Below, one piece after another: positions 5,015 through 5,701 of a stretch of DNA of 9,462 nucleotides. Within the stretch, counting starts at the first letter, position 1. Each line of letters starts with the position of its first letter. Source of the DNA: a virus (taxonomy: Duplodnaviria; Heunggongvirae; Uroviricota; Caudoviricetes). Location: the IMG/VR virus record IMGVR_UViG_2571042690_000013. One strand, given 5' to 3'. The notes under the pieces are model-generated. The model had not been told where the DNA came from and searched no databases. It saw only the letters and a program-made list of their open reading frames with translations. A program made the position numbers and the translations under genes.

Positions 5015-5701
5015 TCACTCCTTCTCTTCTTTTCCGTAGTGGAGTTGGCCAATTTTGATAAGAGGGCGTCCCTGAGATTTGCGGTGTAGATTGGTATCGC
5101 GCAGAGAATACACACAGCCACAATATTCCTGCTGATAGAATTTTTCGCGCTTGCTGATTTCAATCATACGGGACGAGCCGCCCTGCTTGCGCCAGTTATA
5201 ATCCCAGTACACCATACCCGGATAATGCGCAACAGCTCGCCGCCCACACTCGTTAACCTGCTGCATATTTTTCCAGCGTGAAATGCCCAGTGAACTGCTG
5301 ATCACACTGAAACCATTTTCAGCAGCGTACAACGCTGTCCGCTCAAAACGCATGTCAAAACACATGGTACAACGGATCCCCCTCTCAGGCTCCCATTCCA
5401 TTCCTTTGGCACGTTCAAACCAGTTGTCGGTGTCGTAATCAGCATCGATAAACGGCACGCCGTGTTGTTCAGCAAAGCGAATATTTTCATCCTTACGAAT
5501 TAAATACTCTTTCTGAGGATGAATGTTCGGGTTGTAGAAAAAGATGGTGTAGTCGATTCCCGAGGCCTGAAGCGCCTCCATCACTTCACCGGAACATGGA
5601 GCACAGCAAGAGTGCAGTAGTAGTTTGTTTGCCCCGTTTGGGAGCTCCAATTTAGGCCGTTTGAAATCAGCAATAGTCATAAATATTTTTATTGGGGTCA
5701 T
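5015..5701 (-). CDS. QueH-like protein (DUF208; putative cobalamin-independent epoxyqueuosine reductase)
   Basis: 228-aa ORF with [12 protein letters not shown] near the N-terminus, plus [17 protein letters not shown] and YCGCVYS motifs, which I recognise as DUF208/QueH hallmarks. The start is uncertain (ATG at 5701 or 5680, neither with a strong SD). Flanked by ~150-bp and ~180-bp intergenic gaps. Confidence 0.6.

Follow-up and report, generated by a model that had tools for sequence, protein, structure and literature searches.

Why should a lambdoid prophage carry a gene for the last step of tRNA queuosine (Q) synthesis, when Escherichia coli already has an enzyme of its own for that reaction? 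QueA makes epoxyqueuosine (oQ) on tRNA and either QueG or QueH reduces it to Q, with QueH replacing the cobalamin enzyme QueG (PMC4646009) in some bacteria (PMC5372724). The question is raised by a minus-strand open reading frame (ORF) of 228 codons at positions 5015-5701 of a 9,462-nucleotide stretch of viral DNA (IMG/VR record IMGVR_UViG_2571042690_000013), the whole of which we term the window. An earlier note, made from the letters alone, had read this ORF as a QueH/DUF208 gene on account of an HxCCAPC signature and further Cys motifs, and had proposed a profile search and a structural comparison with solved QueH as checks. Here we ask what the gene encodes, where it came from, how it might be expressed and for whose benefit it might be kept.

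A full-length QueH encoded by a prophage

The prophage ORF encodes a full-length QueH. Its translation displays the motifs L-H-S-C-C-A-P-C (H30, C32, C33 and C36 in the numbering of the 228-aa ORF), R-C-T-M-C (C111, C114) and Y-C-G-C (C194, C196), and the Pfam profile PF02677 (QueH) matches it from position 1 to 174 of 175 with E=1.1e-65 and a score of 221.5 bits, the cut-off being 23.5; the family named in the earlier note, its Cys motifs and the significant profile match that it called for are thereby all confirmed. The identification itself is not new, because RefSeq already names the corresponding 221-aa product (WP_000150294.1) “epoxyqueuosine reductase QueH”. As no NCBIfam (equivalog) model matched the prophage protein, that name must stem from another rule. 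In PHROGs the QueH family is phrog_3217, labeled “unknown function”. This profile (188 positions) matches only 5015-5581 of the window, starting from Met41 (ORF residues 41-228), and many phage annotations seem to start queH at an internal Met, dropping the CCxPC motif, which may be the reason that phage databases never gave the family a name.

We aligned the prophage protein with 43 QueH sequences, including representatives at 35-59% identity. Across these 44 sequences (35-86% identity) it retains 16 of 16 family-invariant columns, namely C25, C26, C29, N52, Y59, R62, E99, R103, C104, C107, R111, K137, Q184, C187, G188 and C189 in the numbering of the 221-aa product. The distant members were drawn from 1.84 billion cluster representatives, among which 4775 relatives were found. 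All seven cysteines are likewise invariant in the 99 complete sequences of 100 aligned close homologues, the hundredth being incomplete at those columns. Four metagenomic representatives (P0139, P0143, P0149 and P0152) display QueH domains, at 54-59% identity, at the C-termini of proteins of 719-1398 aa; these could be either fusions or gene-calling artefacts.

The solved relatives recovered by sequence are Thermotoga maritima QueH entries only, at E of about 1e-21 (phmmer against 7lc5, E=8e-22). AlphaFold prediction from the single sequence was uninformative (pLDDT 38), while AlphaFold2 supplied with the 44-sequence alignment gave a model with a pLDDT of 95.6 and a pTM of 0.91. The structural comparison that the earlier note had proposed also came out in favor of QueH: the top Foldseek matches of the model are the QueH crystal structures 7lc5 and 9d86 (E about 3e-14), and it superposes on 7lc5 with a TM score of 0.92 (normalized to the target) and an rmsd of 1.2 Å over 179 columns. 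The fold so tested is the adenine-nucleotide alpha-hydrolase-like core of solved QueH, which the model matches; next in line come the related sulfurtransferases TtuA and LarE, at an E of only about 1e-4, which leaves QueH ahead by ten orders of magnitude. T. maritima QueH, the only member of the family with solved structures (7LC5, 7LC7 and 9DEU), has CCxPD, with an Asp for the third Cys, where the prophage protein and most of the family have CCxPC. A D13N mutant of the T. maritima enzyme has also been deposited (9dco), pointing to mechanistic interest in that Asp, and the metal site of the prophage QueH may differ in detail from the solved one.

The translation start probably lies inside the ORF. 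Nine upstream regions were aligned, five from prophage alleles, one from Shigella and three from chromosomal homologues. Every one of them keeps the ATG at 5680, and four have lost that at 5701 (E. coli GPEC657, Enterobacter hormaechei, Scandinavium and Kluyvera), where ATT or other codons take its place. Alignments with homologues also begin at residue 8-10 of the 228-aa query. Because of this difference in conservation, translation most likely begins at the ATG at 5680 and yields the 221-aa product found in RefSeq; the probable true gene then occupies 5015-5680 on the minus strand (ATG at 5680-5678, TGA at 5017-5015), and the seven-codon in-frame extension at 5681-5701 is probably 5′ UTR and not coding. 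Thus, the ORF delineated at 5015-5701 in the earlier note does exist, with its start placed seven codons too far upstream in all probability. No Shine-Dalgarno sequence is evident 5′ of either ATG.

A cargo slot and the probable capture of a host gene

The window corresponds to the early-right region of a lambdoid prophage, with all its genes on the minus strand. In the direction of transcription (9437 down to 285) they code for a YdaT-like protein, an O-like initiator, a DnaC-like ATPase, DUF1627 and DUF977 proteins, QueH, Hok/Mok, a 90-aa ORF, a DUF968 protein, RusA, the antiterminator Q, a 94-aa ORF and a DNA methyltransferase, followed by tRNA genes. E. coli strain 4/1-1 has the same arrangement in a complete prophage adjoining ompW, which runs from integrase and excisionase through cI/cro to lysis, terminase and head genes. 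As the earlier note had remarked, the queH ORF sits between intergenic gaps, of 153 bp to the DUF977 stop at 5855 on its upstream side and of 180 bp to the mok start at 4834 on its downstream side, and beside a type I toxin, the adjoining hok/sok locus (Rfam RF01794, 120.5 bits, 4772-4947).

Blastn homology to the QueH-less phage mEp460 ends at 5012 and restarts at 5774, so that queH forms part of a cargo cassette (about 5011-5773, minus strand) comprising the promoter region and the gene, without a terminator, between the DUF977 gene and the hok locus. Phages mEp460 and 683R6 fill the same slot with other genes. In mEp460 it holds a gene for a 450-aa protein on the opposite strand (locus L173, 4495-5844); in 683R6, a kinase fragment, an FtsH-like ATPase and an S8 peptidase (locus L174, 1-3467); and in E. 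coli W2-5, queH together with a KwaB-like gene and its partner (locus L172, 3153-4792). The DUF977-hok slot is a hot spot for cargo.

Among 5426 complete E. coli genomes, queH is present in 995 (about 18%), nearly always as one chromosomal copy, and the carriers include an ST131 strain; the whole DUF977-queH-hok stretch is found in 737 genomes. The earlier note was right that E. coli normally uses QueG, whose gene occurs in 5426 of the 5426 genomes. The phage QueH, which the note took to be unusual, is thus redundant on paper, but its gene is not rare. IMG/VR has 189 viral contigs with queH, and in the best 80 of them the QueH protein is identical and always in the same slot amid lambdoid neighbors, with a DUF977 allele (62-100% identical) upstream and the 90-aa ORF, DUF968 and RusA downstream; hok is found in most, not all, of these 80. 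More divergent E. coli alleles (92-98% at the nucleotide level) occupy the same slot in Qin-like and Rac-like prophages. Among 50,697 isolated phage records, tblastn recovered one close copy (at least 95% aa identity), the other 24 matches being at most 78% identical; the sole isolated phage record with the gene is HannyBb, where it is annotated “hypothetical”.

Close homologues (78-91% aa identity) are widespread in Enterobacterales, the nearest chromosomal versions being those of Enterobacter (E. hormaechei), Scandinavium and Kluyvera at 90-91%. A neighbor-joining tree groups the prophage alleles in a single clade whose sister group is E. hormaechei plus Scandinavium; Kluyvera branches next. 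The chromosomal queH genes of E. hormaechei and Kluyvera lie amid ordinary metabolic genes. More distant versions occupy core contexts, that of Erwinia between purL and glrK, that of Providencia near tmcA and purC, and that of Photorhabdus beside benE; at none of these five loci did we find the phage neighbors seen in the window. Nucleotide homology between the window and the Enterobacter, Scandinavium and Kluyvera genes extends from 5008/5011 to 5680-5745, thus covering the coding sequence plus 50-65 bp upstream and ending at the stop codon. Since the prophage alleles constitute a single clade, their sister genes are chromosomal and the homology is confined to the gene and this short upstream segment, the data point to a single capture from an Enterobacteriaceae chromosome. 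We also attempted to trace the donor locus through conserved synteny, and rejected this route: the purL-queH-glrK and tmcA-queH-purC contexts are each genus-specific.

Ratios of nonsynonymous to synonymous substitution (dN/dS, Nei-Gojobori) are 0.04-0.06 among prophage alleles, over dS values of up to 0.44, and 0.02-0.04 between prophage alleles and chromosomal orthologues. Prophages with flanking genes up to 38% apart encode the very same protein (100% identity), and no disrupted allele was seen among 100 distinct nucleotide alleles from the fetched loci (one being incomplete in the alignment). These substitution patterns indicate that prophage queH is under strong purifying selection and has long been kept as an enzyme inside prophages.

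Several other features of the window deserve mention. The hok coding sequence (4613-4777, minus strand) contains at 4668-4704 a 16-bp sequence (GAAAGACCTCTGCGAG on the coding strand) duplicated perfectly in tandem; this duplication shifts the frame after residue 31 and yields a product of 54 aa with a changed C-terminus, against 51 aa for HokD; the best E. coli matches to this 2-kb region are without those 16 bases (99.2% identity, 1985 versus 2001 bp). Because of this frameshift, absent from those matches, the toxin beside queH is probably inactivated in this particular genome. At 7863-8365, in the gene for the O-like initiator, a 252-bp segment is duplicated in tandem without a mismatch (2.0 copies, 100% match), which repeats 84 aa in frame and gives a protein of 409 aa versus 320 aa in strain 4/1-1; the duplication arose very recently or else reflects an assembly artefact. 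The same gene also has about five copies of a 15-bp unit at 8631-8729 (TCAACAGTTGACGGG-like; also scored at a 30-bp period), which look like origin iterons; the lambda origin, with its iterons, sits within gene O. Downstream of the methyltransferase gene there is a complete tRNA gene at 160-235 (minus strand) and another at 1-59 (minus strand) that is cut by the end of the window and corresponds to tRNA-Arg in strain 4/1-1. ARAGORN calls the complete one tRNA-Met (CAT) and its RefSeq equivalent is a tRNA-Ile, so it is probably a lysidine-type tRNA-Ile2.

Expression signals and candidate roles

Upstream of queH, comparative alignment brought out a conserved box, TGcTACACT (5715-5723, minus strand), which is predicted to be an extended -10 element for sigma-70 and lies 35 nt 5′ of the ATG at 5680 (about 40 nt from its center), with TCCCGA as a poor -35 region. 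The box reads TGCTACA(C/A)T in prophage and chromosomal queH alike, with its first base 43 nt 5′ of the conserved ATG. Its TGCTACA portion is invariant in nine of the nine aligned upstream regions, while the remaining upstream DNA of the chromosomal homologues is unrelated, and in the closest relatives a TGnTAnnnT motif occurs 40-46 nt before the start, counting from its first base to the ATG. A consensus sigma-70 scan reported no site upstream of queH; it missed the box because it demands a -35 match, and only the alignment surfaced it. The box is likely an extended -10 promoter, and we infer from it that the queH cassette carries its own promoter and can hence be expressed in lysogens.

Two variations around this element are worth recording. 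In GPEC657, which has the most divergent prophage allele, the box is changed to TGCTACACA, with loss of the final T, and there is no hok downstream; its upstream region may be a weaker-promoter variant. Just upstream of the box, at 5731-5743 of the window (minus strand), the prophage alleles and E. hormaechei share a TTCCCGATAGCCC block that is not conserved in Scandinavium or Kluyvera, and which may represent a regulator-binding site or mere shared ancestry. As an additional candidate for control we considered a preQ1 or cobalamin riboswitch upstream of queH, and rejected it, the Rfam scan of the whole window having returned only sok, tRNAs and chance matches.

On the other side of the gene, the consensus scan places a promoter-like site for hok at 4982-4954, just downstream of queH. 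Between this site and the queH stop (5015) there is no terminator-like site, and the single terminator-like hairpin follows hok, at 4537-4520. Read-through from the early-right operon after induction is likely, given that queH has the same orientation and no terminator stands in between. The earlier note had described the gene as a stand-alone moron: this layout is largely supported, its behavior as a presence/absence cassette agreeing with the description and the conserved promoter-like box being one that would fit it, and the absence of a terminator of its own departs from it.

The reading that we regard as probable is that a host queH was captured together with its promoter, that its product is catalytically competent, and that it frees the oQ-to-Q step of the lysogen from cobalamin. 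The product would be a small iron-sulfur, cobalamin-independent tRNA epoxyqueuosine(34) reductase converting oQ to Q, the activity that Zallot and colleagues reportedly described for QueH in 2017, when DUF208 genes are also said to have complemented an E. coli queG mutant. The Q-carrying substrates are tRNA-Asp, tRNA-Asn, tRNA-His and tRNA-Tyr; in E. coli the earlier steps that provide oQ-tRNA (tgt, queA) are established background, and the pathway is described in PMC5372724. A single capture of queH with about 50-65 bp of promoter region from an Enterobacter/Kluyvera-like chromosome would have given rise to a cassette of roughly 0.76 kb, traveling in Rac-, Qin- and lambda-like prophages in the slot between the replication module (after DUF977) and the hok/nin region. 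In the lysogen, queH would probably be transcribed from its own extended -10 promoter and, upon induction, probably also by read-through on the same strand from the early-right operon. Since E. coli is without de novo cobalamin synthesis and its sole native oQ reductase, QueG, is cobalamin-dependent, the prophage enzyme would let lysogens finish Q-tRNA without B12. The reduction of oQ in E. coli and Salmonella is given as cobamide-dependent in the account of Frey et al. (1988 J Bacteriol 170:2078) that is relayed by PMC10639084 and PMC4646009. The activity of the enzyme in E. coli, that of the promoter and the benefit of B12 independence are all points that we infer, and the last of these is hypothetical. 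The argument from B12 scarcity is weakened by the fact that the gut, the main habitat of E. coli, is usually rich in corrinoids.

An unlikely alternative is that an ordinary QueH is kept for the sake of the phage itself, its early-right expression after induction topping up the Q-tRNA of the host for phage translation. The gene does share its strand with those for replication and antitermination, no terminator being predicted between them, and a 2026 preprint describes how phage infection in Shewanella raises the Q/oQ ratio through induction of queG, so that the oQ-to-Q step does respond to infection there. Against this, the cassette brought a conserved promoter-like box with it from the chromosomal gene, most of the copies seen are in resident prophages, the 50,697 phage records containing but the one close copy, and there is no known difference in decoding between oQ and Q that would matter within one lytic cycle.

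A recruitment of QueH to defense, counter-defense or nucleic-acid modification, for example to act on a 7-deazaguanine base in DNA or to alter tRNA such that it escapes anticodon nucleases or colicins, appears distinctly improbable. It draws on the defense-type cargo that the slot carries in relatives (the KwaB-like gene of W2-5, the S8 peptidase and FtsH-like ATPase of 683R6, and hok) and on the substrates of QueH, which are tRNAs with Q at position 34. However, no PADLOC family matches QueH at E<=0.01, and PADLOC returned nothing for QueH or its neighbors beyond two marginal matches on the DUF1627 protein. Moreover, the link to 7-deazaguanine modification floated in the earlier note found no counterpart in the gene content: the annotation of the 42-kb stretch holding the prophage lists no DpdA/TGT-like gene and none for preQ0 synthesis, and FolE, QueD, QueE, QueC and DpdA are absent both from that annotation and from the ORFs of the window. 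A change of function is further disfavored by the 90-91% identity to chromosomal queH, the orthologue-like dN/dS and the complete set of invariant residues. Least credible of all is the notion of queH as a functionless neutral passenger spread by recombination among lambdoid prophages: its redundancy with the universal queG and the decay already seen in the neighboring hok of the window would fit, but neutral hitchhiking is disfavored by the signs of selection, namely a dN/dS of about 0.05 over a dS of up to 0.44, the lack of disrupted alleles among the 100 and the identity of the protein despite flanks differing by up to 38%.

Relation to known systems and biological meaning

Set against the known QueH family (DUF208, PF02677, COG1636), the prophage protein is alike in its full-length profile match, its fold (TM 0.92), its invariant Cys, Arg, Glu, Lys and Gln residues, its single-domain architecture and its size, and it is 78-91% identical to the chromosomal versions of Enterobacterales. 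It differs from QueH generally in that the gene is phage-borne and occurs in a host species that already has QueG. With QueG it shares the predicted reaction, oQ-tRNA to Q-tRNA; the two enzymes belong to unrelated families and differ in their cofactor need, and queG is a core gene of E. coli (5426/5426), whereas queH is an accessory one (995/5426). The closest parallels in terms of genomic organization are the lambdoid morons at the replication/nin junction, such as relBE-hokD of Qin and hokW of 933W, which are similarly presence/absence cassettes flanked by conserved phage genes, with a promoter-like element, in a slot that sister phages fill with different cargo. Unlike these, queH codes for a housekeeping-type tRNA-modification enzyme rather than a toxin, defense or virulence factor, and has no predicted terminator.

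A different parallel is offered by the other queuosine/7-deazaguanine pathway genes that phages carry, FolE, QueD, QueE, QueC and DpdA, which modify phage DNA (Hutinet et al. 2019, PMC6884629). The prophage gene is distinguished from them by acting at the tRNA-specific end of the pathway, in a prophage without preQ0 or DpdA genes. In the viruses that they analyzed, Hutinet et al. found no homologues of QueA, QueG or QueH (PMC6884629). Our literature search found no paper discussing a prophage QueH. The family, its reaction and its name in databases are known, and its carriage by viruses is undiscussed in the literature searched. Viruses had been pictured as carriers of the early, preQ0 part of the pathway alone (PMC6884629), a view that the presence of the gene in prophages corrects. 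In practical terms the finding carries moderate weight, as the enzyme family and the annotation are known and the benefit is hypothetical.

A broader proposition can be advanced only tentatively, and we consider it more doubtful than the catalytic reading above: that a temperate phage here rewires the tRNA modification of its host, uncoupling Q-tRNA from both cobalamin and BtuB, with a measurable gain in fitness or in virulence-related traits. E colicins and some phages use BtuB as their receptor, and queuosine status affects the decoding of NAU and NAC codons. Links between queuosine status and biofilm formation, virulence, and stress from metals or oxidants have also been reported for bacteria including E. 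coli (PMC10570037, PMC9508795). Were the proposition true, lysogens, including the ST131 strain, would retain fully modified tRNA where B12 is scarce or once BtuB is lost, and QueH would stand as the first enzyme from the tRNA-specific portion of queuosine synthesis to be carried by a virus. A prophage gene that is found in about 18% of complete genomes and that would lift the dependence of this last step on imported cobalamin offers a simple, directly testable instance of lysogenic conversion acting on the translation apparatus.
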